NCBI RefSeq assembly: GCF_023055435.1
Contig: NW_025963802.1
Span: 26,784,001 to 26,848,000, forward strand
Source of the DNA: Haliotis rufescens
Taxonomy: Eukaryota
Length of the DNA: 64,000 nucleotides
Direction: 5' to 3'
The notes beneath the pieces are model-generated. The model did not search any database. It had not been told where the DNA came from and was given only the letters and a program-made list of their open reading frames with translations. The stretch's first letter is position 1, and every line of letters starts with the position of its first letter. Made by a program: the position numbers and the translations under genes. Of the stretch, positions 1 to 56,500 are shown piece after piece.

Positions 1-94
1 CATGACTCTTACCCCAACATCCACGAGTATCTGTACTATCCATCACCCCATCTTCGCCACGCGTCGCCGTACCACTCTTCTTTGTTTCAGCCAT
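1..94 (-). CDS. 5' part of the duplicated BIR protein gene (runs off the window start)
   Basis: Identical to 5152-5245 (MAETKKSGTATRGEDGVMDSTDTRGCWGKSH). Confidence 0.85.
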   Translation of the reverse strand, partial: MAETKKSGTATRGEDGVMDSTDTRGCWGKSH

Positions 95-405
95 TCTTGA
101 TCATTTTATGTCAAATACACTGACCCACTCGAATCCACACTTGTTTTATAGGAGCAGAACCGGATCGAAAATGGCTGCTTCCTGGTTGGTCCAAAACGCA
201 ACGCACGGATTGGTTCGTTCCGGGGCCTGGTTCCCACCTCGGTTTTCTTAAACGACCCGACCCCTGTGTTTCTTTTCCATAGGAAATGGATTTTACCATG
301 GGAGAGAAAGCACAACTCGGCTCGGGTGCTGTCTTCTGATTGGTCGGTGCTGTCTTATGATTGGTCGACAACCCAGGCTTCGGATTGGTCCGATTTCGAT
401 CCTGT
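87..405. promoter_or_regulatory. Promoter cassette copy A (bidirectional BIR/pPolB), duplicate of copy C
   Basis: Multiple CCAAT boxes (GATTGG), TATAAAA on minus strand at ~144-150, identical to 5238-5556. Confidence 0.75.
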
Positions 406-483
406 TTTGGGGAAGGGTTATCCATCCATCAGACGTTCAGTCCCTCTTAGAGTACAGACGTTCATCAGATACGCATCGCTATC

Positions 484-3000
484 ATGACGAGCAACCCAAG
501 TACGCCCTATCGTTTGGAGAGGCAAGACATCACCCGCTCCAGACGATTAAGACCCGCTAACCATACCTATCGTTTGACTTTCAACCCAGACTACTTGGAC
601 ACCGTACCACCGGAACGCGTTCCCATGGAACTGCCAGTTTTATTTGACAGGGTCATCGATGACTTTTATGAACAGATGTCAGGCCAGAAGGGAGATCGTA
701 TTGGTCTAGGTATCGATCATCCCGCTTTGAACACCTCCATACGGATTCCCTTTCGTCGCTTTGAAGATCTCCATGGGCTCGATATTTTGCATGCCGTGGA
801 AAAAGTCCAACAGTCCAACAAAGACCTGAACATCGATGCCACCATGGTGGTGACTTTAGTACACGTCTCAGATCCCGACAGGCTAGGATCGGGCAGTGGC
901 GGTCATCAACTGAAACACGTGATTGGACTCGAAGCCTTTTTAACACGCAAACAGTGCATTGTACGGATCAACAACCAAGATCAATCCTGTTTGGCACGGG
1001 CCCTGGTGGTGGCACAACATTATGCCCAGAAACCCCTCCCTTTGACCCCAGAATGGACCGCCGAGCGAGTGAGACTGACGAGAACGAATCGCGTCGACGT
1101 TCAAGGCATACGGGCACGGGACTTGTTTCGACGCCTTGGCCTGTCTGAAGGCCCCTGTCAGGGCCTGGACGACCTCACACGCGTGGGACGCGCCTTGGTC
1201 CCCCTGAATTATCAACTGAAAGTCTACAGTCAAGAGGTGGACCAGAGACTGTTGTACAAGTGTGATGAGGCTCCACCCCACGCCACGGTGCTGCATCTAT
1301 ACCATCATGATCAGCACTACGATGTCATCACGTCCATGCCCGCTTTTTATGGCTCTAACCATTACTGCGAACGCTGCGACAAACGTTACGATCATCCCGA
1401 AAAACATCCCTGCACCAAGGAATACCGCTGTCACCGCTGCCTCCACTGTACCTATTGCAAGTCCCTGGAAGAGCACGGGATCCCTTGCTTGACATGTCAA
1501 CGTTGGTTCCCCAATCCATCGTGTTACACTCGACATCTCCAGTCACCGTCAGAGGGAAAACCCAGCGCCTGCCAATCGATTCACAGGTGCCCGACCTGTT
1601 TTCATCTGGTCCGCATCTTGGAGACCCCCATGGTTCACCACGAGTGCTTCGACGAAGACCATCCCTGCTTGGTGTGCCGAGAACCCATGACCCCAGACCA
1701 TCGCTGTTACATGACGCCTCTCCGTGAAGAAAACGAGGAGGAGGGGGAGGGGGAGGAGGGGGAGGGGGAAGAGGAAGCGGAGAAGGAGGGGGAAGAGGAA
1801 CAACATCACGTACGAGACAATGTACGATACGCCTTCTATGATTTTGAATGCATGCAAGACACGGGGGAACACATTTCAAATTTGTGCGTGGTGCAACTGG
1901 GATGTGGACGGTGCATCAGTGAAGTCAGCAAGGACTTGTGCGAACACTGTCCATGGAGAGAAGAAGGATATGGTCCCAGCCGTGAGATCGTGTTTCGAGG
2001 CCCCACCACGCGACATGATGTGTGTGTGTGGTTGACCACGTTGGCTGAAAAACCCAGGAAGAAGCCCCACCCAGAGGAAGAAGAGGGCAGCACACGCAAG
2101 GGGACAACAGACCGTCTGGGGAAAAAAAGAAAACGGGATGACACCCCCTCAAGAAAGTACGCTTCCAAACGTCAACGACATGCATCACCCCAGCAGGAGG
2201 CGGAGGAGGGGGAAGAGGGGGATGAGGAAGAGGCCATGGAAGTGGAGAAAACAAAGAAGCCAAAGAACAAGAACACCACTTGCCATACAGTCCCGAAGGA
2301 GGATCGCATTTATGTGATGGCCCACAATGCACGATCGTATGATTTACACTTAATCCTGAAGGGTCTGTCCCCCCTCCTGGTGACACTCCCCACCAAGATC
2401 CGACATGGCCAACACATTTTGCAGATGACCCTGGGACGGTTGTGTTTCGAAGACAGCTTAAATTTCATCCCTTACCCCCTGAAAGCCTTTCCCAAGAGCT
2501 TTGGGCTGAAAGAAATGAAGAAAGGGTACTTTCCGCACTTTTTCAATACGGGAGTCAACCAGACCTACAGAGGTCCCTATCCACCAGCCGTCACGTACGA
2601 TCCCGATGGCATGTCTCCCGCGGAACGCACCGCCTTCCTCCAGTGGCATACTCAATAAGTGCAAGAAGGAGCTTTGTTCGACTTACAAGGAGAACTTTTA
2701 GCTTACTGTCAGAGCGATGTGGACATTTTGAGACGGGGATGCGCCGACTTCCGACAGAACGCCATCCACTCGGTGGGCATGGATCCCTTTGTGGAAGTGA
2801 TGACAGCTGCTGCCTTCACCATGAAATCCTTTCGAAAACACGACCTGAAACCCAAAACCATCGCCATTCTTCCACCTCAAGGCTACCAACCCAAGAGAAA
2901 CTATTCCCAGGCCTGTATGCACTGGCTCCACTATCTGATGGAAACGGACCCCCATCTGCACCTCCAGCACGCCAGGAATGGAGGTGAACAAGAGTTCACG
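484..3000 (+). pseudogene. pPolB copy 1, 3'-truncated at the duplication junction, nonsense TAA at 2656-2658
   Basis: Same protein as copy 2 (ExoI FYDFEC, ExoII AHNARSYD, ExoIII YCQSDV). TAA here is AAA at 7807. Sequence switches to TIR at 3001. Confidence 0.92.
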
Positions 3001-3186
3001 ACAGGGTTGTTGTTGTGGTGTGGTTCTAAAAATAGAAATAGAAAAGGCGGTGGGGGTGAAGGGAGGGAGGGAGGGAAGGGTGGGGGGGAGGAGAGGAGGA
3101 GGAGGAGGCGGGGTGGGTTCACGGTGTGGTGGAGGGTGGGTTGGAGGGTCGTCAAAGCAAAGGAGGAAAAGCTGTCTTTCGGGAGA
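2999..3186 (-). repeat. Inner part of the left TIR
   Basis: Reverse complement of 14107-14293 (CGACAGGGTTGTTGTTGTGGTGTGGTTCTAAAAATAGAAATAG...AGCTGTCTTTCGGGAGA) with a few mismatches and indels in the G-rich tract. Confidence 0.92.
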
Positions 3187-3189
3187 TGT

Positions 3190-3516
3190 TCACATGCATG
3201 TGCATCCCATGGTGCAAAGGCACGGGTGGATTTTCATTTCCCGTCTGACAGGACACCTACTGGTGTGCGTTAACCGCCGCACGTAGGTGTCCTTGAGGAT
3301 GGTCTTACAGTACACACATTCGAAAGTACCATCCCGTGCCCTTGTGCCAAGGGCGTACACAGGTAAGCACCCTTGGCATTTACCGCATTGCCATGGAGGT
3401 AGCGATGGCAATGGCGGTACTTCTTCTTCTTTCTTCTCCAACTCCGAGCGACACCCTTTGCACAGTGGCAAAGGGTGCACCACTGAGGCGAGCTCCAGAT
3501 CCCAGTTTTCAGCCAT
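3190..3516 (-). CDS. Small Cys-rich, putative Zn-binding viral protein (108 aa)
   Basis: CKGC, CGKCQGC and CVYC motifs. ATG lies in the same context (CAAGAATGGCTGAAA) and at a similar distance from the cassette TATA as the BIR gene. Confidence 0.65.
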   Translation of the reverse strand: MAENWDLELASVVHPLPLCKGCRSELEKKEEEVPPLPSLPPWQCGKCQGCLPVYALGTRARDGTFECVYCKTILKDTYVRRLTHTSRCPVRREMKIHPCLCTMGCTCM

Positions 3517-3830
3517 TCTTGATTTTTCGAATAAATTTTACAAGTGACACTGACCCACTCGAATCCACTCTTGTTTTATAGGGGAGGCACTGACACCCTG
3601 CTTCCTGGTTGGTTCGCCAGGCCGCAGCTCCGATTGGTTCGTTCCGGGGCCTCGCCCGCACCTCGGTTTTCCAAAACGACCCGACCCCTGTGTTTCTTTT
3701 CCATAGGAAATGGATTTTAACATGGGAGAGAAAGCACAACCCCGGTTCGGCCAATCAGGGTCCCGCCTGGTCCGAGCGCCGCCTCTGATTGGTCGGCAAC
3801 CCAGGCTTCCGATTGGTCCGATTTCGATCC
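3508..3830 (-). promoter_or_regulatory. Promoter cassette copy B
   Basis: Homologous to copies A, C, D and E: CCAAT boxes, CCATTTCCTATGGAAAAGAAACACAGGG core, CTATAAAACAAG, TCAGT initiator-like motif. Confidence 0.75.
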
Positions 3831-4500
3831 GTTTTTTTCCTTGGGTAGCCTTGGTATTGTTTTAGGTAGACGGTCGTCTGAATGCTAAAGGAAAGGTGGA
3901 CCTTCATAGGTAGACATGAACGTGGGAATGCCTACGCGATGTACGTTGTGTCACTCCCATGCCAATCGGAGTGTCATGTGTGTATGTGTGAGTGTGGATG
4001 TCTTCAAACAGACGTTGACGTTGATGCATAGAATAGCGTGTTGTCAAGCAAAACGTGGTGTCCTGTGTGTGTGTGTGTGTGTGTGACTACAACCATGGGT
4101 GTCGTATGGAGATGAATAGAGAAAGATCGATACACCTGCGTGACGTTTGCACACGTCATGGACTTCGTGTCGCGATGTGAACGTCATGTACTTTGTGTGT
4201 TGCCATGCAAACGTTGTGTCATGTGTGTGTGTGTTTTCAAATTATTATTTTTATTATTATTATTATTATTGAAGGATACCGAGGTGTTGACATCCGTGTA
4301 AGTCGACAGACGTACTGTGACACGTGTTTTCATGCACACGTGATGTTTGACGTGGTGTACTACGTGTCTCTATTGATCTATTGATATATATCTATGTATT
4401 GTATTTTTAGACGTGTGCCTCCAAGAGGTCTAGGGGGGAGGGTGTGGGTTCTTTGTTTTTTTTTGAGGGGTGGGGTTTAGCAAAGCAAAGGAGGAAAGTT

Positions 4501-4541
4501 GTCTTTTGGGTGAGATGGGTGGCCCTGAAAAGGGCCGTTTT
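4501..4541 (-). terminator. Replication-dependent histone-type 3' stem-loop plus HDE-like element
   Basis: Minus strand reads CAAAAC-GGCCCT TTTC AGGGCC-ACCCA-TCTCA-CCCAAAAGACAAC. This matches the metazoan histone stem-loop (6-bp stem, TTTC loop, A-rich 5' flank, ACCCA 3' flank), followed by a purine-rich AAAAGA about 8 nt after the expected cleavage site. Confidence 0.8.
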
Positions 4542-4825
4542 GGGGAAGAAAAACTTTTCTGCTGCTGCTGTCCAAGAAGAACGATCATGTCCAAGCTTCA
4601 TGACAAGACAAGGATCGTCGAAGCGGTACTTGTAACCATCTGGGTATGTCATCGGGGTGCCCACCGTGGCACCACTTGTGGGTCCAACAAAGAAAAGCTT
4701 GTTGGAAACAGGAAGCGGAAACAGACTGAACCAACCACAACAACAACAGCAGTAGACAAACGGGAACTTGAACGGGAACTTGAATGGGAACTTGAACAGG
4801 AACGCAGGACACGGGAAACGTCCTC

Positions 4826-5245
4826 CTAGGCAGCCGGCTGCGCTACGTCATTCGTGTACCTCTGTTTCTGGTGTTTCAACAGGCCGGTGAGCTTGAGGTA
4901 ATCGCAGTCTGGGGACCACTTGTGATGTGCCCCCCAAGGATCGTCGTGGGGTGCCCATTGTCTCAGCCGCAACCCACATTTGAAACAGCACACACCATCG
5001 GCCATCTGAGTGTAGACAAACCCCGCATGGGCCATCTCTTCAGCAGTCTGATACATTTGCGTTGGCCACGCCTCAAACGAAGCGAGCCTTCTTTCAAAGC
5101 GTAGATAATAGTGCGATGGCGTTTGACTGAGCAGTGACACCGCATCCTCGGCATGACTCTTACCCCAACATCCACGAGTATCTGTACTATCCATCACCCC
5201 ATCTTCGCCACGCGTCGCCGTACCACTCTTCTTTGTTTCAGCCAT
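4826..5245 (-). CDS. Single-BIR-domain IAP-like protein 1 (139 aa)
   Basis: RLASFEAWP...MAHAGFVY...DGVCCFKC...LRQWAPHDDPWGAHHKWSPDC fits the BIR consensus with CxxC-H-C ligands; no RING. Confidence 0.92.
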   Translation of the reverse strand: MAETKKSGTATRGEDGVMDSTDTRGCWGKSHAEDAVSLLSQTPSHYYLRFERRLASFEAWPTQMYQTAEEMAHAGFVYTQMADGVCCFKCGLRLRQWAPHDDPWGAHHKWSPDCDYLKLTGLLKHQKQRYTNDVAQPAA

Positions 5246-5556
5246 TCTTGATCATTTTATGTCAAATACACTGACCCACTCGAATCCACACTTGTTTTAT
5301 AGGAGCAGAACCGGATCGAAAATGGCTGCTTCCTGGTTGGTCCAAAACGCAACGCACGGATTGGTTCGTTCCGGGGCCTGGTTCCCACCTCGGTTTTCTT
5401 AAACGACCCGACCCCTGTGTTTCTTTTCCATAGGAAATGGATTTTACCATGGGAGAGAAAGCACAACTCGGCTCGGGTGCTGTCTTCTGATTGGTCGGTG
5501 CTGTCTTATGATTGGTCGACAACCCAGGCTTCGGATTGGTCCGATTTCGATCCTGT
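5238..5556. promoter_or_regulatory. Promoter cassette copy C, between divergent BIR1 and pPolB genes
   Basis: CCAAT boxes, TATAAAA (minus, ~5295-5301), TCAGT initiator-like motif; the only intergenic DNA between two divergent ORFs. Confidence 0.78.
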
Positions 5557-5634
5557 TTTGGGGAAGGGTTATCCATCCATCAGACGTTCAGTCCCTCTTA
5601 GAGTACAGACGTTCATCAGATACGCATCGCTATC

Positions 5635-8600
5635 ATGACGAGCAACCCAAGTACGCCCTATCGTTTGGAGAGGCAAGACATCACCCGCTCCAGACGATTA
5701 AGACCCGCTAACCATACCTATCGTTTGACTTTCAACCCAGACTACTTGGACACCGTACCACCGGAACGCGTTCCCATGGAACTGCCAGTTTTATTTGACA
5801 GGGTCATCGATGACTTTTATGAACAGATGTCAGGCCAGAAGGGAGATCGTATTGGTCTAGGTATCGATCATCCCGCTTTGAACACCTCCATACGGATTCC
5901 CTTTCGTCGCTTTGAAGATCTCCATGGGCTCGATATTTTGCATGCCGTGGAAAAAGTCCAACAGTCCAACAAAGACCTGAACATCGATGCCACCATGGTG
6001 GTGACTTTAGTACACGTCTCAGATCCCGACAGGCTAGGATCGGGCAGTGGCGGTCATCAACTGAAACACGTGATTGGACTCGAAGCCTTTTTAACACGCA
6101 AACAGTGCATTGTACGGATCAACAACCAAGATCAATCCTGTTTGGCACGGGCCCTGGTGGTGGCACAACATTATGCCCAGAAACCCCTCCCTTTGACCCC
6201 AGAATGGACCGCCGAGCGAGTGAGACTGACGAGAACGAATCGCGTCGACGTTCAAGGCATACGGGCACGGGACTTGTTTCGACGCCTTGGCCTGTCTGAA
6301 GGCCCCTGTCAGGGCCTGGACGACCTCGCACGCGTGGGACGCGCCTTGGTCCCCCTGAATTATCAACTGAAAGTCTACAGTCAAGAGGTGGACCAGAGAC
6401 TGTTGTACAAGTGTGATGAGGCTCCACCCCACGCCACGGTGCTGCATCTATACCATCATGATCAGCACTACGATGTCATCACGTCCATGCCCGCTTTTTA
6501 TGGCTCTAACCATTACTGCGAACGCTGCGACAAACGTTACGATCATCCCGAAAAACATCCCTGCACCAAGGAATACCGCTGTCACCGCTGCCTCCACTGT
6601 ACCTATTGCAAGTCCCTGGAAGAGCACGGGATCCCTTGCTTGACATGTCAACGTTGGTTCCCCAATCCATCGTGTTACACTTGACATCTCCAGTCACCGT
6701 CAGAGGGAAAACCCAGCGCCTGCCAATCGATTCACAGGTGCCCGACCTGTTTTCATCTGGTCCGCATCTTGGAGACCCCCATGGTTCACCACGAGTGCTT
6801 CGACGAAGACCATCCCTGCTTGGTGTGCCGAGAACCCATGACCCCAGACCATCGCTGTTACATGACGCCTCTCCGTGAAGAAAACGAGGAGGAGGGGGAA
6901 GGGGAGGAGGGGGAGGGGGAAGAGGAAGCGGAGAAGGAGGGGGAAGAGGAACAACATCACGTACGAGACAATGTACGATACGCCTTCTATGATTTTGAAT
7001 GCATGCAAGACACGGGGGAACACATTCCAAATTTGTGCGTGGTGCAACTGGGATGTGGACGGTGCATCAGTGAAGTCAGCAAGGACTTGTGCGAACACTG
7101 TCCATGGAGAGAAGAAGGATATGGTCCCAGCCGTGAGATCGTGTTTCGAGGCCCCACCACGCGACATGATGTGTGTGTGTGGTTGACCACGTTGGCTGAA
7201 AAACCCAGGAAGAAGCCCCACCCAGAGGAAGAAGAGGGCAGCACACGCAAGGGGACAACAGACCGTCTGGGGAAAAAAAGAAAACGGGATGACACCCCCT
7301 CAAGAAAGTACGCTTCCAAACGTCATCGACATGCATCACCCCAGCAGGAGGCGGAGGAGGGGGAAGAGGGGGATGAGGAAGAGGCCATGGAAGTGGAGAA
7401 AACAAAGAAGCCAAAGAACAAGAACACCACTTGCCATACAGTCCCGAAGGAGGATCGCATTTATGTGATGGCCCACAATGCACGATCGTATGATTTACAC
7501 TTAATCCTGAAGGGTCTGTCCCCCCTCCTGGTGACACTCCCCACCAAGATCCGACATGGCCAACACATTTTGCAGATGACCCTGGGACGGTTGTGTTTCG
7601 AAGACAGCTTAAATTTCATCCCTTACCCCCTGAAAGCCTTTCCCAAGAGCTTTGGGCTGAAAGAAATGAAGAAAGGGTACTTTCCGCACTTTTTCAATAC
7701 GGGAGTCAACCAGACCTACAGAGGTCCCTATCCACCAGCCGTCACGTACGATCCCGATGGCATGTCTCCCGCGGAACGCACCGCCTTCCTCCAGTGGCAT
7801 ACTCAAAAAGTGCAAGAAGGAGCTTTGTTCGACTTACAAGGAGAACTTTTAGCTTACTGTCAGAGTGATGTGGACATTTTGAGACGGGGATGCGCCGACT
7901 TCCGACAGAACGCCATCCACTCGGTGGGCATGGATCCCTTTGTGGAAGTGATGACAGCTGCTGCCTTCACCATGAAATCCTTTCGAAAACACGACCTGAA
8001 ACCCAAAACCATCGCCATTCTTCCACCTCAAGGCTACCAACCCAAGAGAAACTATTCCCAGGCCTGTATGCACTGGCTCCACTATCTGATGGAAACGGAC
8101 CCCCATCTGCACCTCCAGCACGCCAGGAATGGAGGTGAACAAGAGTTCACGTGTGGAGAGGGCCACCATCGGTACAGCGTGGATGGCTACGATCCAGCGA
8201 CAGGCACCATCTACGAGTTCCTGGGCTGTTTCTGGCATGGGTGCCAGACCTGTCACAAGACCCAACGTGGAGAACCACATCCCGTCCTTGGCACGTCGTT
8301 GGGAGCCCGTTACACCGACACCCGCTACCGCTTGAGTCTGCTGAGTCAACACCCTGAGGTGAAACGGATCTTCACCCTGTGGGAGCACGAGTTTACGAAA
8401 ATGCAACGGGAGGACTCCGCTCTGCGTGCTTTCTTGCAGGGACCCCGCTGTATCCACGTCCCCGGGCCGCTCAACCCTCGCGACGCTTTCTATGGAGGAC
8501 GCACCAATGCGACGCGATTATGCTACGAAGCCCAAGATGGTGAAACCATCAAGTACATCGATATTTGTTCCCTTTACCCCTACATTTGTAAGACCGGAGC

Positions 8601-9865
8601 GTTTCCCACGGGACACCCGACCCTTCTCCATCAACCCCCTGTGGACACGTTGTTTGAACTGAAAGGCCTGATCCAATGCCGTGTCCTACCCCCGAAACGC
8701 CTCTACCACCCGCTACTGCCTTACAGATCGGGTGGCAAACTGCTCTGTCCTTTGTGCCGTACGTGTGCCGATGCCCGGTCAGACTCCCCCTGCCAGCACA
8801 CGGACGAAGAGAGGTCATGGGTCGGGACGTACGCCACCGTAGAACTTCAGGAAGCCGTGAAGAAGTATGACTACCGGGTGCTTCAGATCTACGACGTTTG
8901 GCATTTTGACACTTTTGCACAGCATGACCCCGACACCCAGCAAGTGGGACTCTTTGACACTTACATCGATCGGCATTTCAAGGAGAAGCTCGAAGCCAGC
9001 GGATACCCCGAGGGATGTACGGATCACGATGCTTACATCCAGGAAATCTATGACAAAGAAGGCATTGGGTTGGACAAGGATCGCATCGAAAAAAATCCAG
9101 GACGTCGCACGATTGCCAAGATGCAACTGAATTCGCTCTGGGGCAAGTTTGGACAACGGGTAGACTACAGTCAGAACGTCTATATCAGCGATCCTGTACA
9201 GTACTTTGCCTTGTGGAGGGATGACCGCAATACCATCGAGGATGTGACCGTTGTCAACGAACACATGGTGGAAGTGACCTATACCCATCGGAAAGAATAC
9301 CAAACCCCTCATTCTCATTTCAACGTCGCCATCGCCGCTTGGGTAGCCCAAGCACGTCTCAAGCTGTACGAGACCCTTGCCCTGGTGGGCCGCAGGGTCT
9401 TGTATTTTGACACGGACACCGTCATTTACATTCATCGACCCCACGATGAAAATCCAGAGCTGGGCCATTCGTTGGGTGAGTTTACGGATGAACTGGACGG
9501 AAACACCATCAAGACGTTTGTGTCGGGAGGTCCCAAAAACTATGGCTACGAGTTAATGAACCCCAGACCCGATGGAACGCGCACGACCTGCAAAGTGCGA
9601 GGGTTCACTTTGAATTACCGAAACCAACACCATCTCAACTTTGACACCATGAAAGGACTGATACTGGGACAACGGCCTGGGAAAGACGAGGAGAAAATCA
9701 GTTTGCATTACCCTCATCAGATCATTCGAAAAGGACCTCGTCACGAAAACGCAATTGTGACCCGACCCTCCCGAAAAGACTATCGTACCGTGTACGACAA
9801 GCGACGAAACCACAGGGCTGCCTGTAGATACGCTCCCCTTTGGGTACAGAGACGACTTTCACTAA
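5635..9865 (+). pseudogene. Protein-primed family B DNA polymerase (Polinton-type pPolB) with N-terminal terminal-protein-like/vOTU-like region, Zn fingers and VSR-like nuclease insert; nonsense at 6682 and +1 frameshift near 9807
   Basis: ExoI/II/III, motif A YIDICSLYP, motif B KMQLNSLWGKFGQ, motif C YFDTDT, KNYGY. DQSCLARAL...HYDVI is vOTU-like. VDGYD...YEFLGCFWHGC is VSR-like. CGA>TGA at 6682 (CGA intact at 1531). The conserved C-terminus DTLPFGY continues in another frame to TAA 9863-9865. Confidence 0.95.
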
Positions 9866-9920
9866 AAACAATTTCATAACAGCGGATCGAAACCGAATCG
9901 ACATGGACCCCTACAGAAAA

Positions 9921-10152
9921 AAACGGATCGAAATCTGACCAATCCGAAGCCTGGGTTGTCGACCAATCAGAGGCCGCACTCGGACCAGGGTGGGCTCTGA
10001 TTGGTCGAACCGAGGTTGTGCTTTCTCTCTCACGCTACAAGACTAACCCTATGGAAAAGAAACACAAGGGTCGGTCCATTTTGGAAAACCAAGGTGAAAG
10101 TCCGACACCGGAACGGACCAATCAGAAAGCAGGACCTCCGTGGCTTTTAATA
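9921..10152 (+). promoter_or_regulatory. Promoter cassette copy D (more diverged)
   Basis: GGATCGAAATCTGACCAATCCGAAGCCTGGGTTGTCGACCAATCAG...CCTATGGAAAAGAAACACAAGGGTCGG, homologous to the other copies. Confidence 0.72.
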
Positions 10153-10356
10153 CGACCGACGCTCTCCGGTCCTCACTTTTCACTGAACGGACCAAGCAAC
10201 AACATCGTCCCTCTGATTGATGTTCCTCACGTTGTGTTGGCTGTTGGCGTTTTATCTGGAAGAAACACGTGTTTGGAGAGAGTACCATCAAGTGTTGACA
10301 CACATCCGTGAAGACTTGGAAAGAAAAAACAACGAACAGAACATCCGAACAACATC

Positions 10357-11501
10357 ATGTCGAAACGGTTGAATGACAAGACACGAAGCGACATGAGTGG
10401 CCAAGGAAGCAGTGGAGATGGGAACGGTGACATGACTGCTGAACTGTGGGGTGAAGTGTACGACTTGCTGTGTTTAAAGATGAAGACCGACGACGCGTAC
10501 GCCAAGTTACGTGCGAAGGGCGACAACCTGATGTGCGAACAGATACGTTCAAAGATGAGGAAGCTGACTGAACCCGAGAAAGGCACATCGAAGAGGACGA
10601 TTAAGAAGATCCAGAAGAAAAAGACGAGCAAACCCACAGCCATGGTGACCCCAACAGCAGCAGCAACACCCACCACCACCACCATCACCACCACAGCGCC
10701 AGTCCCCACCACCACCACCACAGCAGCCACAGCAACCACTGCAACAGCGACAACAGACACCGAAACAATGGGGACATCCTTTTTGAAACCTGCAACACCT
10801 GCAGCGTCTGCAAAAAGACGATCACGGAAGAAATTATCTCTGAAGATCTCTCCTCAAGAACAACTGTAAGTACCCTGCTCTTCTTTGTCTCAGTCGTTCT
10901 TGATGTGATGTTGATGTTGATGATGATGATGATGATGATAGCGATGTTGATGATGACTATACCTATGCCTATGATGAATGGACTCTGTCCTTTGATTGAC
11001 AGGACCCCTGATGTCAGTTCAGCCCAGACCGTGCTAGAACAGTGGTGGGAACAAACCCCTCGGGAGCCCACCTATTCACCGAATGCCCCTGTGACGATGG
11101 CGACGGGTGACCTCGATGATCATGAAGCGCTCAAGCTGGCCACTCTCCCATCCATGGATCTGGACACGCTCCCCCTGCTTGAGGCTTCATGGTCACCAGC
11201 ATCACCGGAAGAGGTTCATGTCTACTCCTCAGGTACGCCCATGGTTTGCGACGATGATGATGATGATGACAATGTTGACCTGGATCCTTATGGAGAAGCT
11301 CAACTCACTCCCCTACAACGCGAATGTCGTGTTCGCCGACACAACAACATGTTAAGGTACATCAGTTGCAACAGCGGGCAAGTGATGTGCCATGCCTGTG
11401 GTCTGGAGCTCATAGACTATACTTGTAGTATGTTGACCTATGACAGCATAGTGACACATGATGACATGCCTATCGCATCTGAGGATCACATCTTATGGTG
11501 A
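10357..11501 (+). CDS. Spliced viral protein of unknown function (~335 aa; exons 10357-10865 and 11003-11501): basic, Thr-rich and acidic regions, C-terminal Cys/His cluster
   Basis: CT|GTAAGT donor at 10866 and TTGACAG| acceptor at 11002 join ORFs 10357 and 10905 in frame (QEQ-L-TPDV). The intron removes the (GAT)n microsatellite. Lies downstream of cassette D; ATTAAA at 11804. Confidence 0.65.
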
Positions 11502-12265
11502 TCCTCCTCTTCACCCGAAGAACTTTACAACACGTAAGCTGCAACCGTGATCAAGTGATGTGTCATGTCTGTTTCAGGGAGGCCATAGACTGTACGTGTT
11601 GAACGGATGGACCTCTCACATGGTTGAGGGAGGACCACCTCTTATGGGATTGAAGACAGAAGAGCTTGAAGATGGAAGAGGAAAACGTTGTCGCGTTATT
11701 GATGTTGTTGTTGTTGTTGTTGTTGTAGGGACATGCAAAGCACTCCCTCCTCCATTGACTTTTCGTATTTCCATTGTATCTGGTTGTGATTGGTTTTTTC
11801 ATGATTAAACAGTGATTGATTGAACTGACTCTTTGTGTCTTGATTGACCTCAACTCCAATAGAGTGCCGAACCGAGGGTAGAAGTTGAGTTGAGATGTCG
11901 TTTACGTCGTCTGTCCGTCTGTCTGTCTGTCTGTATGTGCGTCTGTCATGTCCGTGCACACCAAAGTGTAAAATTAAAATAAAAATAGATAAAAGAGAAA
12001 GGCTATGCTTGAAAGATCAGCTGCCTGGTGTCAGTCATTCCAGTACGCATCGATCATCCCCACACCCACCGTGTGCCATGTCATGTCATGGATCATGTCA
12101 TGCCTCATGCCGTGTGTCCGTCAACCCAAACACAGGATGACGTCACGTCATGAGGTGGAGGAGGTGGAAGCTAAGGTCATGACCTTCCGTTGAAGGGAGT
12201 AGGGTGGAGAGTTTCATAAAAGCAGGCGAACCCTCAGACCTTCTTTCAGTGAAGTCACAGTCATC

Positions 12266-12796
12266 ATGGAGCAAAGACGTTCTATGAATGCCATGTCATC
12301 CTCCCGAGATGTCGTCACCGATTCCGAGTGGGTGTGTGAAAAGGCGAGAGAACCAGAAGCGAGAAAACGTCCACTCTTGATGGACGACACACTCTTGATG
12401 GACGACAGGTGTCGACTCGGTGACGTTCTGGAGAGACCTTTTCCTTCTTACACCTTGTGTCATCCTTCTCATCCCCACTATGATTCATTTCAAGAACGTC
12501 TGAGGTCTTTTCAAACGTGGCCTAAACAGATGACCCAGACCCCTTATGACATGGCCATGGCTGGCTATTTCTATCCAGGACGAGGGGACTGTGTGACCTG
12601 TTATTGCTGCGGTGTGGCACTCCGCCAATTGGAAGCCACAGACCAACCCTGGAAAGAACATCTGAAGCACGACAAAGTCCCCTGCGAATACTTGTGCGTG
12701 TTTTGTCCTGATGGAGAAGTGAACGAAAAATACAGACGTTTGGTGTCCCAAGAAGCACGGAAGAGAAGAGTCGAGTGTCTTGTACACCCCAAGTGA
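12266..12796 (+). CDS. Single-BIR-domain IAP-like protein 2 (176 aa)
   Basis: ERLRSFQTWP...MAMAGYFY...DCVTCYCC...DQPWKEHLKH...C; upstream CATAAAAG and TCAGT; ATTAAA at 12949. Confidence 0.9.
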   Translation: MEQRRSMNAMSSSRDVVTDSEWVCEKAREPEARKRPLLMDDTLLMDDRCRLGDVLERPFPSYTLCHPSHPHYDSFQERLRSFQTWPKQMTQTPYDMAMAGYFYPGRGDCVTCYCCGVALRQLEATDQPWKEHLKHDKVPCEYLCVFCPDGEVNEKYRRLVSQEARKRRVECLVHPK

Positions 12797-13013
12797 CAAC
12801 GTTTTTTTGTTTTTTTTCAAAGTGGTCAGACGTTCCTACCCTCGTGGTCACCCCTCGTGGTCACCCCTCGTGTTCACAAAAATCACAGGGATGACCCCCC
12901 TCATCCTGTGACTTTTGTTTTGTTGTGTTGGTTCATGTGATCAGGGGGATTAAATTTGTTTTAAAAACTCATAGTCGTGTTATGTTGTCTGTAGGATGAA
13001 GAAAAAACAAAAC

Positions 13014-13310
13014 AGGATCGAAATGCACACCCCGATAAAAACCGGATCGAAATCGGACCAATCGGAAGCCTGGGTAGTCGACCAATCAGAGACCGCGCTC
13101 GGACCAGGCGGGGCTCTGATTGGCCGAACCGGGGTTGTGCTTTCTCTCCCATGGTAAAATCCATTTCCTATGGAAAAGAAACACAGGGGTCGGTCCGTTT
13201 TGGAAAACCGAGGTGCAGGCCGGGCCCCGGAACGAACCAATCGGGGGAGCTGCCTGGGGAACCAATCAGGAAGCAGGGTGTCAGTGCCTCTCCTATAAAA
13301 ACAAAACAAG
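13014..13310 (+). promoter_or_regulatory. Promoter cassette copy E
   Basis: Near-inverse copy of B; CCAAT boxes and CTCCTATAAAAAC just upstream of ATG 13340. Confidence 0.78.
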
Positions 13311-13339
13311 AGCGAAGCCACTCACACACACTGCATTCT

Positions 13340-13969
13340 ATGAAACCCATCATGTCAGCTCGATACAGTTGTATGAAGTGCCAGACCGACAGTCACAGTT
13401 ACCTGTACTGCCCTGAAGTGACATGCCTCCAGTGTCACGATCAAGGTCACCGTCACTATGTCTGTCCGAAGCTGAGCAGTCTAGAGATGCAGGAGAAGCA
13501 GAACCTGGCCCCCTGTTACAACTGTGAAGCCCTGGGTCATTTCGCTGCAGATTGCCCAGAACCCCGTCGAAAGAAGACTCCCCATCGCCTGGACCGCTGT
13601 TACAACTGTCGAGCCCTGGGCCATTTCGCTGCAGATTGCCCAGAACCCAGTCGAAAGAAAACGTTAGCAACACCGTCCACGTCGACACCCGTGGCATCCG
13701 TGGCAACCGTGACCCCCGTGACCCCCGTGACCCCCGTGGCACCCGTGACACATGTCCTTCATCTCATCGAAGACATGCATGTCGATGTCCTCGACCTAAA
13801 AGAATGCCTCACACAACTCCGTGTAGGCATCACACCTCGTGTAGAGAAAAGAAAACGGAACAGAAGCCCCTCACGAAAACACGTTTCAAAGCGTCGACGA
13901 CACCTTCCGTCCGAGGATGAGATGGAAGTAGAGGATGGAGAAGTTAGATCATCTGAACAAAGTGACTAA
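13340..13969 (+). CDS. CCHC zinc-knuckle protein (4 knuckles) with bipartite NLS-like tail
   Basis: CMKCQTDSHSYLYC, CLQCHDQGHRHYVC, CYNCEALGHFAADC, CYNCRALGHFAADC. The start is placed after the TATA box, not at 13151, which lies inside the promoter cassette. Confidence 0.85.
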   Translation: MKPIMSARYSCMKCQTDSHSYLYCPEVTCLQCHDQGHRHYVCPKLSSLEMQEKQNLAPCYNCEALGHFAADCPEPRRKKTPHRLDRCYNCRALGHFAADCPEPSRKKTLATPSTSTPVASVATVTPVTPVTPVAPVTHVLHLIEDMHVDVLDLKECLTQLRVGITPRVEKRKRNRSPSRKHVSKRRRHLPSEDEMEVEDGEVRSSEQSD

Positions 13970-14106
13970 CGCATGGGCCATGCTGCCCCACTGTTTTTAC
14001 CCGTTTCCCATCGTTTGCAGTTTTTCCAGTGTTCCAGTGTTCCAGTGTTCCTGCCGTTTCCTGTCGTTTCCAGTTTCCAGTTTGTTTTCCAACGGCCCTT
14101 TTCATC

Positions 14107-14665
14107 TCTCCCGAAAGACAGCTTTTCCTCCTTTGCTTTGACGACGCTCCAATCCACCCTCCACCACACCGTGAACCCACCCCTCCTCCTCCTCCTCCCT
14201 CCCCTCCCTCCCTCCCCCCTCCCTCCCTCCCTTCACCCCCACCGCCTTTTCTATTTCTATTTTTAGAACCACACCACAACAACAACCCTGTCGATCTTGT
14301 TCACCTTGTACGTGCGCTTCTCCGGGTTTTTCCCCATTCATCTCCTCCCCGGAAACGGAGGCGACGCCCTCTTGGAGGCGCACGCCACCGGACACGGAGG
14401 CGACGCCATCTTGAAGGCGCACGCCACCGGACACGGAGGCGACGCCATCTTGAAGGCGCGCGCCACCGGACACGGATGCGACGCCATCTTGGATGCGCGC
14501 GCCACCGGAAACGGATGGGACGCCATCTTGGATGCGCACGCAAGTCCCATCATGCCCCGCGCGCATGCGCAGGTCACGTGACCGGATGTGACGTCACAGA
14601 GGTCACGTGATCCTCTCGACCAATCAGAAGCCAGGAGCGGTTCTCGGGTAATGTACACAACTACT
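14107..14665 (+). repeat. Right TIR (~560 bp)
   Basis: Inverted match to 2999-3186; ends ACTACT; contains E-boxes (CACGTG), a CRE (TGACGTCA) and a CCAAT box near the tip. Confidence 0.88.
14351..14541 (+). repeat. Five 39-bp tandem repeats inside the TIR, four with a YY1-type site
   Basis: Unit GGACACGGAGGCGACGCCATCTTGAAGGCGCACGCCACC; CGCCATCTTG matches the YY1 consensus. Confidence 0.85.
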
Positions 14666-15709
14666 AACACTAAACCAGTAAATGCCCCCATTGCAACTTA
14701 AAAGAAACGCCTGAACTAATGGGCATGGCCTCAGCCCTCCATAATCAAGAATCCAAAAACCACAAAAAAAACCTAATACTTACCGACTACCTAAGTGGAC
14801 TGCAAGCCCTCCAAAACAAAAATACCAAAAACCGGCCTAAATTAATAAATCAAATACTTAAAAGCTCCAACGACCTAACTAACGCAGGCAAACAAATAAC
14901 CTTCTTGTGGATACCCGCCCACGTAGGAATATACGGTAATGAAAACGCCGATAAGGCAGCTAAACTATCCCTCAAAATCCCAGAAATAAGCTTAAACTTA
15001 CCCATCTCAAAATCAGAAATTAAAAGCGTTAACAAGCAAAAAATCACAAAAAATGGCATAATCTATATCTAAACTCAAATAGCCAAATCAAAAAAGTGCT
15101 CAGCAAACCACTAACCAGACCAAAAATTCTCCATCCATCAAAACAAATCGACAGAGTAATCACTAAACTCCAAACAGGACACACCAACCTAAATAACCAC
15201 CTAAAAAATTTAAAAAACACACTACAGGTAACTGCCCACACTGTAAACAACTAGAAACCCCAGAACACGCACTCATCCACTGCACACACTACCTTACACA
15301 TAGAACCGCATTACAAAACCACCCTCAATCTAAACAAGGCTCTCACTCTAGAAGCAATACTAAACCCACAAAATAAACTAGAAAACTTCAAGGCCTTAGG
15401 CGTATTCTTAATCAAAACGGAACTAATAAAACGCATCTAAAAACACAATAACCTACCAAATCAAAATTACATAAACACACAAACATCCACCATACCCAGC
15501 TCCCTTAGTTCTCCTCCCCTACCCCATCGGCATCTATTCCAAATCTCAAAATTCCCAAATTCTATATAAGCATCCCCTTAACCCCCCTCTTGGGTTGCAC
15601 AGACCACTTTCGCCCCTTTCGGAAACACATTAAATGGCCTGGCCGGGCCCGTGTGCGAAATACGCATCAGTCGGAAAGCGCACGTTAAATCTCCAAAGTA
15701 AGTAAGTAA
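14666..15709 (+). mobile_element. 3' part of an RNase H-bearing non-LTR retrotransposon (I/Nimb-like), the insertion target of the Polinton-like element
   Basis: ILTDYLSGLQAL...FLWIPAHVGIYGNENADKAAK is RNase H; downstream frameshifted TGH...CPHC...ETPEH...C motif; (GTAA)n tail at ~15698-15709. Confidence 0.85.
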
Positions 15710-16762: not shown

Positions 16763-17570
16763 AACAATTTGATGTTCATACGTTTTTCACGAGACCGTGT
16801 TCTTGAAATGACGTAAACACTGACGGACTACTTCAACATTCCTGGGGAAACCCCTGGGAATTCCCTACCACGAAAACATACATAAACGTTCTTTCTGATC
16901 ATTTAGAACCTTAACTCTTGGTCTCAGCGTGTCAGTATACGTTGAGAAATGTCAGAGAGCGTGACTGCATGATTGTTCACGAATATCCTCGCTGCGGCCT
17001 ATCCTAATGAACAAACGAAGAAATGCACATCTAAACTATCGTAGTATCGACTCGATCCGTGATTAGGTTGACATTGACCGTCTCCAGCAATCTATGAATT
17101 TACCTTAGTGTCTGTTTGGCGCATCTTTATTCACCTTTCAATGATCGGCCAGTTGATCAATGATGACTAACACATCTAACCGCCACAGGTTCATTAACAA
17201 CTTCGGAAATCTCTCCCGTCACGCGTTTATCGTGTCGGCCATTTTGACGTCTTGTACTTGATGCATATGTATTATGACGCGCTGTCATTGTGACTGACTT
17301 ACTGAGGTAGTTCTTTACAGACCTTTCTCATCTAATGAGGATATGATTTGAATACATGTGCTGCGTAGGATGTTTCTGAAGAGCAAGTTGTGCATCCATA
17401 CGCCCATGTCACCTCTCTTTTTGAGGAACTATTTTACACCGCGATGTAGCTGGTTGTTGTATGGCTGTCAGTGTAAACATGAAGTCACGCGTACTAAACA
17501 AAAAAATTAAATTGTGTTTAGATCTTGGCCTACATCCTTTGGGGTAAGACATTGTGATAAAAACATTATA

Positions 17571-17728
17571 AAATTTACTTTCACTTTGTGTGAGTTCATT
17601 GGAGTATGAACCTTCATAGAGTGAGGGCCAAACATTGTAGGAACGTTGTCGCAAGCTCCGCCGTTAATTGGCCCTCATTCTATGAAGCTTCATACTCCAA
17701 TGAACTCACACAAAGTGAAGGTCAATTC
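17571..17728. repeat. Inverted repeat (~60-bp arms), MITE/hairpin-like
   Basis: TTCACTTTGTGTGAGTTCATTGGAGTATGAA...GAGGGCCAA versus TTGGCCCTC...TTCATACTCCAATGAACTCACACAAAGTGAA. Confidence 0.8.
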
Positions 17729-17739
17729 TTAAATGTACA

Positions 17740-27960: not shown

Positions 27961-30311
27961 TCACTTGTAGTTTGTATATACGCCTGCGTTTATTTTCTTG
28001 TAGTGTAGTAAATAAGCAAGATTCACAGACTACTACAGAATAGTCGCAATTCATATTTTTATTTTGTTCATAAAACCACCCCATGCTTCCATCAATCTTA
28101 AAACTGAAACTTTAAAGGCTAAATTGAACTGAAATAATTAATGATTTACATATAGATCATATATTGACAAATAATTGTCAGTATTATCAGCCACTGTTTG
28201 TATTGTTTGCAATGACCAAAGAATTATTTTGTCAGTCAACAGATTTGGAGTTTAAGCCGAATATGTGCTCGTCCGATTGCGGGATGACAATTACAAAATA
28301 CAGATTGATTAGATATATGTTTCCACCCTAAGTCACACATACGACATTTGAGAGCGTCATTAACACTTAACCTTATTCCTTGGAAAATAGAAATGAAATG
28401 CGTTGTAAATATTATTTAAAAACAACTCGTTTCTTATAATTCCTTTCGATTAATCTGTCCCCGGGAATTAAATTTAATGCTGAAGTGCTTGTAAAATAGA
28501 GTTTAACTTTCCCGCCAGGGGAGACTAGATATCCAATTATAGTATAGGCTCAAGCAGTAATATACATATTTATGCAACAATTCTCTCTGTGTTAAACTGT
28601 ATATATAGTTAACAATTGTGCGTTCTGATGTGTGTTGTAGTTATCTACCACATATATACTCAGACAATGAGTCAGACACACACACAAACACACACACATA
28701 CATAATTTTGACAGAACTATACTTAAGATATACATAAAATATGAGAATGATTGCCGAATTAACGTTTGTTATAGATAATCATAGTAATGGACTTCATATT
28801 GTATTGTTTGATAGGCATTATTTAGAAGCTGACGGATGGCAAAGTAAACACAATATATGGATAACAACTTCTTTGATACTGTATAGGCGACGTTTCGGTA
28901 TAGATCCTTGTACCGTTGTCAAGCAAGGAGGTGAAATAATACTGCTTAATTACTGCTGGAATATATGGACCGATGGAGTATGCCTTGTATCTTTATGTGA
29001 ACAAAAATAATTTCATGGATCATTATATGTTAGTTGATATCCAAGTAGAACATTTCTGCTGGTGATATTTACTTTAGCTTGAGCACCTGTGTCTGGTCAA
29101 CGTTCCAGTGATGTCCAGATCATTTTACTTTGCTTCAATCCCCAAATAAGTGTTGCGTCGTTTCTAAACTGAACGGCAAAAGAAACCTTGCACCAGATTC
29201 AAGTGATTGTAATTAATAAACTAAAAATAACAAAAGTTTGAGGTAAAGTTTATTAAAAAACCAGCAAGTCCACAAAGTGCTGAACAACTCAATCTGGACT
29301 TTTTGTTGTTAGATATTTACACCAGTCAAACAACAACCGTGGGAGTTGAAAATTCTGTTGTCCAGATTTTCACTGCAACTCATTCAAACACGGAAAGTGG
29401 TCACAGACACAAAATTTGTCACTTTAGTGCCGAATGTGTCCACTGCGTGTCTGCTAGCTGTATTCAGACAGATAAACCCATCTATATAGCCACAAACACA
29501 AGTGAACCATCCAGCAAATTCATCTGGTTCAAACGCCAGCGCAGCCTAATAAACTCTATCATAAGAAGAATGGCTCAAAATGCTGCTTTCGAAAACAGGA
29601 AATTCAAGAAAACAGGATATTTAACCTAAATGTTTACATAAGTGCAGGTACCCCATGTGCAAAGAAATCATATTAGAATAACATTGTTCTTGGACCTTAT
29701 TTTATCCAGTTTGCATTTTCGTCGCCGCCTTGATGATCCACGTATGGCTGACCCTGTTTGTGGAGGGTCACGCTGGGTATGAGTAGTAAGCAATAAGCCG
29801 GATCATTCATGACCGTTGTGTTATGTGTGAATGCGCCACTGCGCCCATTGGTATAGACCAAATATGCATGGATTCGATGCTAAAATGATGCGGTTTTAGG
29901 ATGTGTAAGAAACAGATGACTACACTCGTGCCTGTCAGATATACCACTCCCCCTTTCCCCCGTTAGATACGTTTTGAAGCAACTCGTTGTAAGATAAATG
30001 GTATCTAATAGACACTCGTGTAGTAATCTCTGTTTTGACGATGTGGTATTGCAAACAAACGACAGAAACATCACAGCAATTGGTGAAGCCGCCACATTGT
30101 TGGTGGTTTGTTAAAAGTTGCGTAAAACCATCACTAAATATAGCCGATTTTATGAATCTACCACGATTGCAATTCCGACATATTGACGTTCCATTATTTT
30201 CAGGATGGTAATGTGTAGTTTTAGTAAACGCGAATTAACGTTGCAACACAGATCTAAGAAAACCTCCAAACAATTTGTATATTTTCAACGAACCGTTCCT
30301 TGTGCTAGGTG

Positions 30312-55499: not shown

Positions 55500-56500
55500 A
55501 CACTGCAAATATGTGTTCAGACCCTAAAACACTTGAACACGTCCCTTGTCCTATAATTTGACATGTTTTGGTCAAAACATGTGTAGGAATGTGTTTGACA
55601 ACTAAACGCGTGTGGGGTCTAAATATGGATGGGAAAGACCCGTGTATCCCAATTGAAATTCATTGTAGGTACAACTGGGCGCTTTCTGTGAGTGTTTTTA
55701 ACGTTTAATAGGGACACAGAAGTAGGGTGCGGATAACTGAAAAACGTTAAGGGACTTTCATCGTATGAGATATATACTTTCAGCTTCCGTCTCTTCTATG
55801 AGAGAAATGCTTATTAGTCATATAGCAACAACACATTTATGAACACAACACACGATACGAACCTTCTTCCTACCAGCTGTGCTATGGAGACTGTTGACAA
55901 ATGTCAATTTTCCTTGTTACCATTAACGTAGCTTGGTTTATTTTTACATTCTTATATTGATTATACGACGTTGGTTGTAAATTCTGATGGTATATGAAGT
56001 ATGCGACTGCCTGTGAATCAGATTGCACATCTAATTTAAATATATATAATTATACTTTCGTGTATTATACATATTTTACATAAAGCCAAATGATATGCAT
56101 TTAATTCAGCATCTTTAAATTCTAAGCATGTTTAGATTATTTGGACGATATATAATGATATGCATTTTGTCGTAAACATGTTCAAACACTAAACCTGTAA
56201 AATCTTAACATGTTTAAACGTGTTCAAATTCTAAACATGTTTAGATTATGGAGATTGGGTTGAGGTGGTGTTTAGGTTGTGACACGATAGCTCATTTCAT
56301 GTGTTAAGACTCTAAACGTGTTTAGACAGAGATCACCAAATGTGTATCCCGTTTTGGATTTAGTCACATTCCGAAACATATTAACATGTCTTGTATGTGT
56401 TTTCATTATTATAAATATGTGTCTTAATATAGTCTCACAATGCTGGTTTAGTGCTTCCGTTTAGGATTTAAAACACATTCCTAAACATGTCTTACAGTGT
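55500..56500. mobile_element. Non-autonomous DNA transposon with CACTG...CAGTG ends; related shorter copy at ~57118-57397
   Basis: TACACTGCAAA at ~55499 and TTACAGTGTA at ~56491; 57118-57397 starts CACTGTAAAA and is inversely similar to 56200-56500. Confidence 0.5.

Follow-up and report, generated by a model that had tools for sequence, protein, structure and literature searches.

The window, the whole 64,000-nt stretch of Haliotis rufescens DNA that was analysed, carries an element bounded by terminal inverted repeats (TIRs) of ~563 bp with tips AGTAGT...ACTACT, which measures 17,218 bp as found and ~12.07 kb once an internal tandem duplication (unit ~5,151 bp) is subtracted. The right TIR (14103–14665, plus strand, ~563 bp) ends in ...ACTACT at 14665, as originally predicted, and is followed by the 6-bp target-site duplication (TSD) AACACT (14666–14671, plus strand). 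The left end had been placed at 2999–3186 (plus strand), and this we rejected, as the site is the duplication junction: it holds a partial internal TIR whose outer ~370 bp are missing, and here pPolB is fused, across a 12-bp microhomology, to the inner part of the TIR. The element's real left TIR was located at G000:C24:26781448-26782021, beginning at window position -2552, i.e. 2,552 bp upstream of the window; the right TIR is 96% identical to it. Positions 1–2998 (plus strand) are the end of the first duplication copy, comprising the start of BIR1, a promoter-like repeat and a truncated 5′ part of pPolB, and they copy 5152–8149 with 7 differences. The left boundary of the predicted ~12-kb element at 2999–14665 was wrong. 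It had also been proposed that the left flank be checked for AACACT within the same LINE, and AACACT directly precedes the true left TIR; the insertion splits a LINE-like ORF with RNase H, whose region continues in the host flank at 14674–15254 (plus strand).

The gene for the protein-primed DNA polymerase B (pPolB) occupies 5635–9879 (plus strand; PF03175, E 5e-34) and has a premature stop at 6682–6684 and an altered 3′ end; its duplicate copy is cut off at 2998, and an unbroken relative encodes about 1,416 aa. On the minus strand lie a Cys-rich accessory gene of ~108 aa with no Pfam match (3190–3516; shared-variant omega 0.16) and BIR1, with a single IAP-like BIR domain (4826–5245; shared-variant omega 0.27), and on the plus strand BIR2 (12266–12796) and an accessory gene with two CCHC zinc knuckles (13352–13969). 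Domain matches confirm the pPolB, the two BIR genes and the zinc-knuckle gene that had been predicted for the interior, and the Cys-rich gene is an ORF under purifying selection among copies. The spliced gene of the original prediction corresponds to a predicted two-exon accessory gene at 10357–11501 (plus strand; exon 1 10357–10865, exon 2 11003–11501), whose in-frame GT..AG intron (10866–11002), called from sequence alone, has its donor conserved in 14/14 aligned A copies (see below) and its acceptor AG in 13/14. A promoter-like repeat with CCAAT-like and TATA-like motifs read by eye (3574–3837, minus strand) recurs at 5326–5559, 9916–10126 and 13037–13300. Searches of the whole element with 17 partner and relative proteins (tblastn, E<0.01) found no integrase, ATPase, protease or capsid genes, MCP and protease profiles gave nothing significant in its six frames, and no helicase family appeared among the ORFs scanned. 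The predicted absence of integrase, ATPase, protease and capsid genes therefore stands, with the correction that the interior keeps an ATPase deletion scar (11976–12279, plus strand).

Elements sharing these TIRs fall into three classes. Family A (about 11.1–11.9 kb), a large family that includes the window element, carries pPolB, BIR and accessory genes, with variable cargo (A′ variant). Family B (about 10.0–10.5 kb) shares these TIRs, is flanked by 6-bp TSDs of its own, lacks pPolB, and encodes an ATPase, an integrase, a putative minor and a major capsid protein (mCP and MCP) and a protease in canonical Polinton order, identical to that of monopartite controls. Class C consists of gene-poor elements, and the promoter-like repeat is also present in B and C. 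Among 42 classified loci, 20 belonged to A, 18 to B and 4 to C, with no mixed locus; a further 39 TIR-anchored stretches contained B core genes in no case and A genes in 27. Two proposed checks were thereby borne out, namely many independent ~12-kb copies with 6-bp TSDs, as a stable family predicts, and a second TIR-sharing class with integrase and capsid and without pPolB.

We then scored linkage in one assembly from the best 94 of 433 pPolB and the best 95 of 316 MCP candidates, taking as young those loci with 90% identity or more (pPolB) and as linked any MCP, integrase or ATPase within 15 kb. Among the matches listed, none of 44 young pPolB loci had a neighboring MCP, integrase or ATPase, and none of 31 young MCP loci a neighboring pPolB, while 30 of those 31 had an integrase nearby; likewise, no fused A-B copy was seen among the young insertions listed. 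As a control, 6/6 divergent pPolB loci lie near structural genes, and the divergent Polintons of the same genome are unsplit. With 20 A loci and 0/44 listed young pPolB loci linked, we reject the window locus as a one-off deletion; the near-identical full-length copies that this would entail were absent from the matches listed. All core genes on a single TIR-bounded molecule were found at none of the young loci listed, mixed copies being only old and heavily deleted: 4/9 loci in one set, 3/31 loci chosen by their ATPase, and 1 old locus found separately. Since A and B genes occur together in these old decayed copies, the split was, as read from their sequences, not absolute early on. At one duplicated locus a B fragment lies nearby.

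The assignments of the B proteins rest on profiles and models of differing strength. The integrase combines rve (PF00665) with a chromodomain (PF00385) and is on segment B only, and the ATPase is A32-like (Pox_A32, PF04665, E 3e-6). No PDB relative emerged from the MCP sequence profile; the AlphaFold model (pLDDT 70) matches the Sputnik MCP in Foldseek (E 4e-16) as well as PBCV-1 and iridovirus capsids, and the atlas score is DJR-like 0.98, so that on modeled structure this is a double jelly-roll major capsid protein, present on B only. The protease gives only E 0.61 as a single sequence; a profile of 40 relatives matches adenain (E 3e-9) and ASFV pS273R (E 4e-11), and its His, Gln and Cys are invariant and its Asp nearly so; it too is on B only. 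The mCP is 32–34% identical to monopartite homologues and corresponds to them in position; its resemblance to the Sputnik V18/19 cluster in the atlas has a low recognition score and is a lead only.

The ATPase scar links the two families. Its segments 11976–12037, 12114–12161 and 12207–12279 match, respectively, the region upstream of the segment B ATPase (87%), the ATPase start region (77%) and the region immediately after the gene (82%), and the start-codon context of BIR2 is that of the gene following the ATPase on segment B. Twenty-five A copies span the scar region. The ATPase gene is still present in older A copies, and 24/31 loci chosen by ATPase are A plus ATPase. The A copies without ATPase form one clade (27 rows, support 98/93) nested among the A-plus-ATPase copies, which suggests that the ATPase was lost once, in the continuing A lineage. 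In the same trees, mixed copies are scattered among the A-plus-ATPase copies and an old B copy is basal, so that the idea that all mixed copies are pure monopartite fossils was not established. A polymerase swap, with A and B arising separately, had also been suggested by quick trees; since a clade of A plus an H. asinina monopartite relative was not rejected by the AU test on the pPolB tree (p 0.225), we dropped that claim.

Non-autonomous Maverick families exist, and A and B might be independent deletion families of this kind, dependent for their mobility on a full-length master Polinton, one either absent from the assembly or belonging to a monopartite family. The old mixed copies would fit such an origin, as would the many internally deleted A copies with clean TSDs and one young-looking H. 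cracherodii MCP/pPolB pair with consecutive accession numbers (96% and 88% identity), which could be an unsplit copy. A young same-TIR autonomous master and neutral decay, the marks of deletion derivatives, were both absent from the loci examined: young full-length copies numbered 0 among the matches listed, and A and B both show selection where passive derivatives should decay neutrally. Moreover, the four monopartite control Polintons share neither the TIRs nor the promoter-like repeat, and identity in the core proteins is only 41–57%. The single ATPase loss in a continuing A lineage also speaks against a master, and we regard this explanation as very unlikely.

With accession adjacency as a proxy for genomic adjacency, an MCP lies next to a pPolB in 11/18 listed H. 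asinina records and in 1/12 from H. cracherodii; comparison led us to reject orthology between the adjacent H. cracherodii pair and the old mixed C290 locus. Among 14 metagenome contigs examined no second split lineage was found, and none had TIRs; those with enough upstream sequence mostly have a long ORF ahead of the ATPase. An IMG/VR search returned no relative, and none of the sequencing runs listed was an RNA run carrying the family. In four sequencing runs, the family was present in contig sets of two organisms, with 10 partial small-RNA reads.

Selection and termini bear on whether the two families worked together and whether particles were involved. Omega for shared variants was 0.25–0.34 for pPolB, 0.21 for MCP, 0.20 for mCP and 0.13 for a small gene between MCP and mCP, against 0.48–1.19 for singleton variants; selection was weak on the integrase (0.45, p 0.03) and ATPase (0.32, p 0.04), and the test for purifying selection on the protease was not significant. 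Median private divergence was 0.86% in A and 0.92% in B, ages of this kind varying with sampling density. The low shared-variant omega and matching age distributions indirectly suggest that A and B were maintained together under selection. Perfect TSDs flank 26/30 two-ended copies. Left and right TIR tips agree within 1 mismatch in 28/30 copies and differ between copies by ~8.5/18, so that nearly every insertion bears its own matched tip, a pattern consistent with recurrent entry from a diverse external pool. The TIR tree, built on 120 bp and poorly resolved (3 starred branches), mixes A and B (13 label changes vs 13.1 shuffled); one A and one B copy also have a rare tip type in common (support 97).

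These observations also weigh on a bipartite transposon without particles, in which A and B would complement each other in germ-line nuclei, the B integrase excising and inserting, the A pPolB copying, and the capsid genes riding as passengers. All copies seen are integrated, with TSDs and no extrachromosomal form among them, and as A and B share one genome, complementation would need no infection. Passenger status sits poorly with the purifying selection on MCP and mCP and on the small gene that separates the two, a kind of evidence that has been used to argue for re-infection (PMC8097293), and a purely nuclear life sits poorly with tips that are particular to nearly each insertion. We consider this reading unlikely.

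Alternatively, the pair could be asymmetric, B being a virus replicated by polymerases of the host or of other Polintons, and A a plasmid-like pPolB satellite that hijacks the B capsid and integrase. Paired linear pPolB plasmids occur in yeasts, A has variable cargo, and young A-type loci outnumber B-type loci (44 vs 31 among the matches listed). However, the long TIRs and AGTAGT tips of B are those of A, as expected of a pPolB template, with the tips of the two intermixed; the two segments, which have the ATPase as their point of overlap, jointly yield the ancestral gene order; and in the pPolB tree a shared origin with the monopartite H. asinina relative is not rejected. The asymmetric pair therefore seems to us highly improbable. 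The nuclear linear plasmid or satellite that the original prediction had entertained is weakened by the existence of a dedicated reciprocal partner.

We think it likely that A and B, known here from integrated copies, worked together as a two-segment Polinton virus, given their complementary gene sets, shared ends, independent TSDs, matching ages and purifying selection on both. This accords with the predicted bipartite Polinton-like virus, of which the window element would be the replication and host-control segment, and which the TIR-sharing integrase/capsid class without pPolB supports. In a cell with both segments, the pPolB of A would prime and copy any DNA bearing these TIRs (A, B or C), the capsid, ATPase and protease of B would package them, probably with a single segment in each particle, and the integrase of B would insert each separately into the germ line, with A contributing BIR genes against apoptosis and further genes for host control. 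Both segments may descend from a monopartite ancestor (pPolB, ATPase, ..., integrase, mCP, MCP, protease, BIR) as reciprocal deletion genomes overlapping at the ATPase, A afterwards losing its ATPase once and keeping the scar. We lean, somewhat cautiously, towards a bipartite, separately packaged double-jelly-roll dsDNA animal virus whose endogenous copies keep the transition in time order, which would run from monopartite, through overlapping ATPase-carrying segments that still re-fused, to a two-segment state locked after ATPase loss, with gene-poor cheats alongside.

The closest known relatives, as described in PMC8502044 and PMC11071308, are Polintons/Mavericks with ‘alpha’ pPolB (adintoviruses), which have the same AGTAGT TIRs, 6-bp TSD, PF03175 pPolB, rve and chromodomain integrase, A32-like ATPase, adenain-like protease, double jelly-roll MCP and gene order, and whose minor capsid gene has a putative counterpart here. 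BIR accessory genes also occur in local monopartite Polinton copies. Unlike in adintovirus-type Polintons, the core genes here are spread over two separately integrated elements (~12 and 10.4 kb), about 22 kb in sum vs 16.3–17.5 kb in three local monopartite copies. Polintons have so far been described as single molecules, and we found no bipartite Polinton in the open literature searched. One published pipeline (10.1101/2023.08.22.554363), as described, accepted a Polinton only if its five core genes all lay within 20 kb, a rule that would discard both segments, so that elsewhere such elements may have been classed as defective copies. Accounts of defective Mavericks (PMC8097293) describe TIR-bounded copies without core genes, to which class C and the deleted A copies are alike. 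What sets A and B apart from these is that they form two reciprocal classes of matching age, both under selection, and that the matches listed include no young full-length master.

Segmentation, shared terminal repeats and a Polinton-derived pPolB on only one segment are likewise described for Bidnaviridae (Bombyx mori bidensovirus, PMC4061559) and Vesanto virus (PMC8363768), although bidnaviruses as described have ssDNA, a parvovirus-like capsid and an S3 helicase and carry their main capsid gene on the pPolB segment. The bidnavirus hallmark of a parvovirus-like single jelly-roll capsid with an S3 helicase is not seen in A and B, which have a double jelly-roll capsid and an integrase and place pPolB and capsid on different segments. 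Yeast pGKL1/2 linear plasmids, transpovirons and polydnaviruses also comprise several linear or segmented dsDNA replicons in mutual dependence, polydnaviruses being domesticated, with packaged DNA that does not replicate; to our knowledge, none is a reciprocal split of one Polinton gene set. The origin of multipartite viruses is described as an open question tested mostly by models, and one theoretical model (PMC10159356) has two partial genomes replace a full one, with gene-poor ‘full cheats’ that resemble class C. With more than 100 datable insertions here that document full, overlapping, split and gene-poor forms, natural data can be used to test in which order events took place and what part cheats played. 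A split Polinton, if true, extends segmentation to integrating double-jelly-roll DNA viruses of animals, and whereas multipartite viruses are described as mostly known from plants and fungi (PMC11721093, PMC12474326), A and B would represent an integrating dsDNA animal virus with dated intermediates.

The element predicted at window 2999-14665, a TIR-bounded pPolB element of about 12 kb, is a real feature whose left end has to be corrected. Its right end at 14665 and its interior, with pPolB, two BIR genes and a zinc-knuckle gene, are as first described, and integrase, ATPase, protease and capsid genes are missing from the whole element: 17 partner and relative proteins used as tblastn queries gave no match at E<0.01, and major capsid (MCP) and protease profiles gave no significant match in its six frames. 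Position 2999, taken for the left end, is a junction of pPolB with the inner part of the TIR, with 12-bp microhomology; window 5152-8149 is duplicated at 1-2998 with 7 differences, and the true complete left TIR lies at G000:C24:26781448 (contig of the window). The expected AACACT precedes this TIR, with the identical six bases directly after 14665, and the insertion lies, as proposed, within a LINE-like ORF. The TSD left by the Polinton rve integrase is 6 bp. As it stands the element measures 17,218 bp, and about 12.07 kb on subtracting the ~5,151-bp internal duplication. A premature stop at 6682-6684 interrupts its pPolB. Haliotis proteins are the nearest named homologues, pointing to an abalone as the likely host. 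The host flank contains tandem arrays of 48-bp and 40-bp units (30274-33300 and 50192-52900), and MITE-like short inverted-repeat pairs occur at 56114-57323 and 17563-17736.

The TIR was searched for across the genome, the best 40 of 485 candidates being scored, and its tip pattern matched 224 places vs 44 for a control pattern. Forty-two loci were extracted (22 via the TIR, 10 via pPolB, 10 via a capsid match) and comprise 20 of class A, with pPolB and accessory genes like the window element, 18 of class B, 4 of class C, which lack any core gene, and none that is mixed. Many independent copies of ~12 kb with 6-bp TSDs exist, as does the second TIR-sharing class that the original prediction had envisaged, since B has integrase and capsid without pPolB. 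Both ends were located in 30 of the 42 loci, with a perfect TSD in 26 of these 30 (A 11/13, B 11/13, C 4/4); two-ended copies measure 11.1-11.9 kb in 9/13 for A and 10.0-10.5 kb in 8/13 for B. B genes run in the order ATPase, two unnamed ORFs, integrase, small ORF, minor capsid (mCP), small ORF, MCP and protease, with an additional small gene near the opposite end. Integrase and ATPase were identified by Pfam rve, Chromo and Pox_A32, the protease by profile matches to adenain and pS273R, and MCP by an AlphaFold model (pLDDT 70) matching virophage and giant-virus capsids (E 4e-16), while gene position and atlas similarity provide a lead for the putative mCP. Of a further 39 TIR-anchored stretches, drawn from matches not already assigned to B and many spanning just 10 kb, 27 contained A genes, 3 the class-C gene alone and 9 no gene; none contained a B core gene.

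The matches listed include no young full-length copy: at ≥90% identity, 0/44 pPolB loci lie less than 15 kb from MCP, integrase or ATPase, and of 31 MCP loci 30 have integrase nearby and none has pPolB. The rival reading, that the window element is a one-off internal deletion of near-identical full-length copies, finds no such copy in these lists, near the top of both of which a young full-length copy would be expected. As a control, divergent pPolB loci (50-57%) adjoin structural genes in 6/6, and the four of these that were inspected are all monopartite (three of 16.3-17.5 kb, one enlarged by insertion), with pPolB and then a gene order identical to that of B; neither the element's TIR nor its promoter-like repeat was found in these four. 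A distant Polinton of another pPolB type (L087-L088, G000:C334:29.71-29.73 Mb; MCP 30-32%) has, read by eye, a homologue of the small class B/C gene beside its ATPase, with retroelement-like ORFs in between.

The split has left a record in A. Window 11976-12279 matches B in the stretches on either side of the ATPase and in the start of that gene, whose body is gone, and this scar is spanned by 25 A copies. A set of 31 loci (30 chosen via ATPase or the accessory-ATPase junction, 1 from an unrelated family) includes 24 of A type that retain the ATPase at the scar position, 2 of B, 3 mixed and 1 with ATPase alone. In the BIR2 tree (46 rows), the 27 A copies without ATPase form a single clade (98/93) that nests within copies carrying it. 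The latter appear older by their median private differences (1.77% vs 0.35%, p 2.5e-5, a measure that depends on sampling density). Because A-plus-ATPase copies and old B copies interleave in the ATPase tree, we infer that the ATPase was for some time on both segments.

Against a clean split speak 8 old, heavily deleted loci with A genes and B structural genes (4/9 of a deliberately divergent set, 3/31 of the ATPase set and 1 other), 7 of them in canonical gene order, and an additional duplicated locus in which an A-plus-ATPase core adjoins a B fragment. These mixed loci belong neither to the clade of young A copies (27 rows, 100/99) nor to that of young B copies (14 rows, 100/98), and in no case are pPolB and the structural module both complete. 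They may be relics of the unsplit form or have arisen by re-fusion via the common ATPase. In other species, accession order served as a proxy for linkage. Of the MCP records listed, 11 of 18 in H. asinina and 1 of 12 in H. cracherodii are no more than 4 numbers away from a pPolB-cluster record, suggesting an unsplit relative in the former and a split in the latter, though the sole adjacent pair of the latter looks young and may be an unsplit copy. The H. asinina MCP (74%) groups beside B with modest support, and an AU test did not reject a common origin of A pPolB and the H. asinina element. The H. asinina pPolB cluster (P0170, P0172) includes 151-aa members labelled 'caspase-2-like' by the source, a hint of a caspase-like gene within or next to the pPolB of this monopartite relative.

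A and B act as a single population. A tree built from the first 120 bases of the TIR (39 rows) is poorly resolved, with 13 changes of the A label vs 13.1 in shuffles; in it, a rare TIR tip type groups one A copy with one B copy (support 97). Median private divergence is 0.86% for A (26 copies) and 0.92% for B (17 copies), one duplicate locus having been dropped. For variants common to at least two copies, omega is 0.25-0.34 in pPolB, 0.27 in BIR1, 0.21 in MCP and 0.20 in mCP, with marginal values for integrase (0.45) and ATPase (0.32); singletons give 0.48-1.19 and hold most stops. Selection was not significant for the protease, BIR2, zinc-knuckle gene, spliced gene exon 1 or three B ORFs. PMC8097293 takes selection on capsid genes as an argument for spread by re-infection. 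TIR positions 7-24 (window 14642-14659) are hypervariable among copies, differing on average at 8.5/18 bases, and the left and right tips of one copy mismatch at no more than one base in 28/30; coding genes differ by a few percent. This tip pattern suggests end-to-end correction and frequent exchange.

A promoter-like module of ~260 bp, found in the window element at 3574-3837, 5326-5559, 9916-10126 and 13037-13300, precedes four A transcription units and occurs once on B and C. The class C elements (L035, L045-L046, L047, L061-L062, L215, L217, L240) are TIR-bounded, span 5.8-12.4 kb and mostly carry the small gene from one B end; some are palindromes, and one holds ~100 copies of a 22-bp repeat. 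They may be satellite or defective genomes, or a third segment. In variant A' segments (L099-L100 on C179, L109-L110 on C1, L097-L098 on C68, L235, L236), which are nested among young A copies, an Ala-rich ORF of ~400 aa without convincing Pfam match replaces the BIR and zinc-knuckle cargo; their pPolB is of the A lineage and their inverted repeats exceed 1 kb.

We regard a two-element complementary system as very well supported, and its passage as a bipartite virus as probable. In Polinton biology as described in PMC11071308 and PMC4061559, the terminal protein is part of pPolB, which copies linear TIR-ended DNA, and the TSD is generated by the rve integrase. A would supply replication in trans to all three classes, and B would package and integrate them. 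Separate packaging of the segments is an evenly balanced question; segments of 10-12.4 kb each, with a summed length above that of local monopartite genomes, favour one segment per particle. The split may have been driven by cheating or by relief of a size limit.

L310:1831-9300 (G000:C13:17.95 Mb) represents a separate family. It forms a palindrome of 7.47 kb (99.9%), each arm of which encodes an rve-chromodomain integrase and a 512-aa ATPase of C2H2/A32-like type; no polymerase or capsid was detected in this stretch. The family has many open copies (~38% integrase identity), several as inverted pairs, and the palindrome may be another reduced Polinton-derived element. The short metagenome contig FXBE01006104.1 (L131), from a relative with 72% MCP identity, has a BIR gene between the small capsid-adjacent gene and MCP.

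No bipartite Polinton was found in the openly accessible literature covered. The gene-poor 'full cheats' of PMC10159356 are a fitting parallel to class C. Among the nearest cases in the sources covered are integrase-less PLVs, possibly integrating in trans (PMC11296320), and the bidnaviruses, which differ in having ssDNA and a parvovirus-like capsid.
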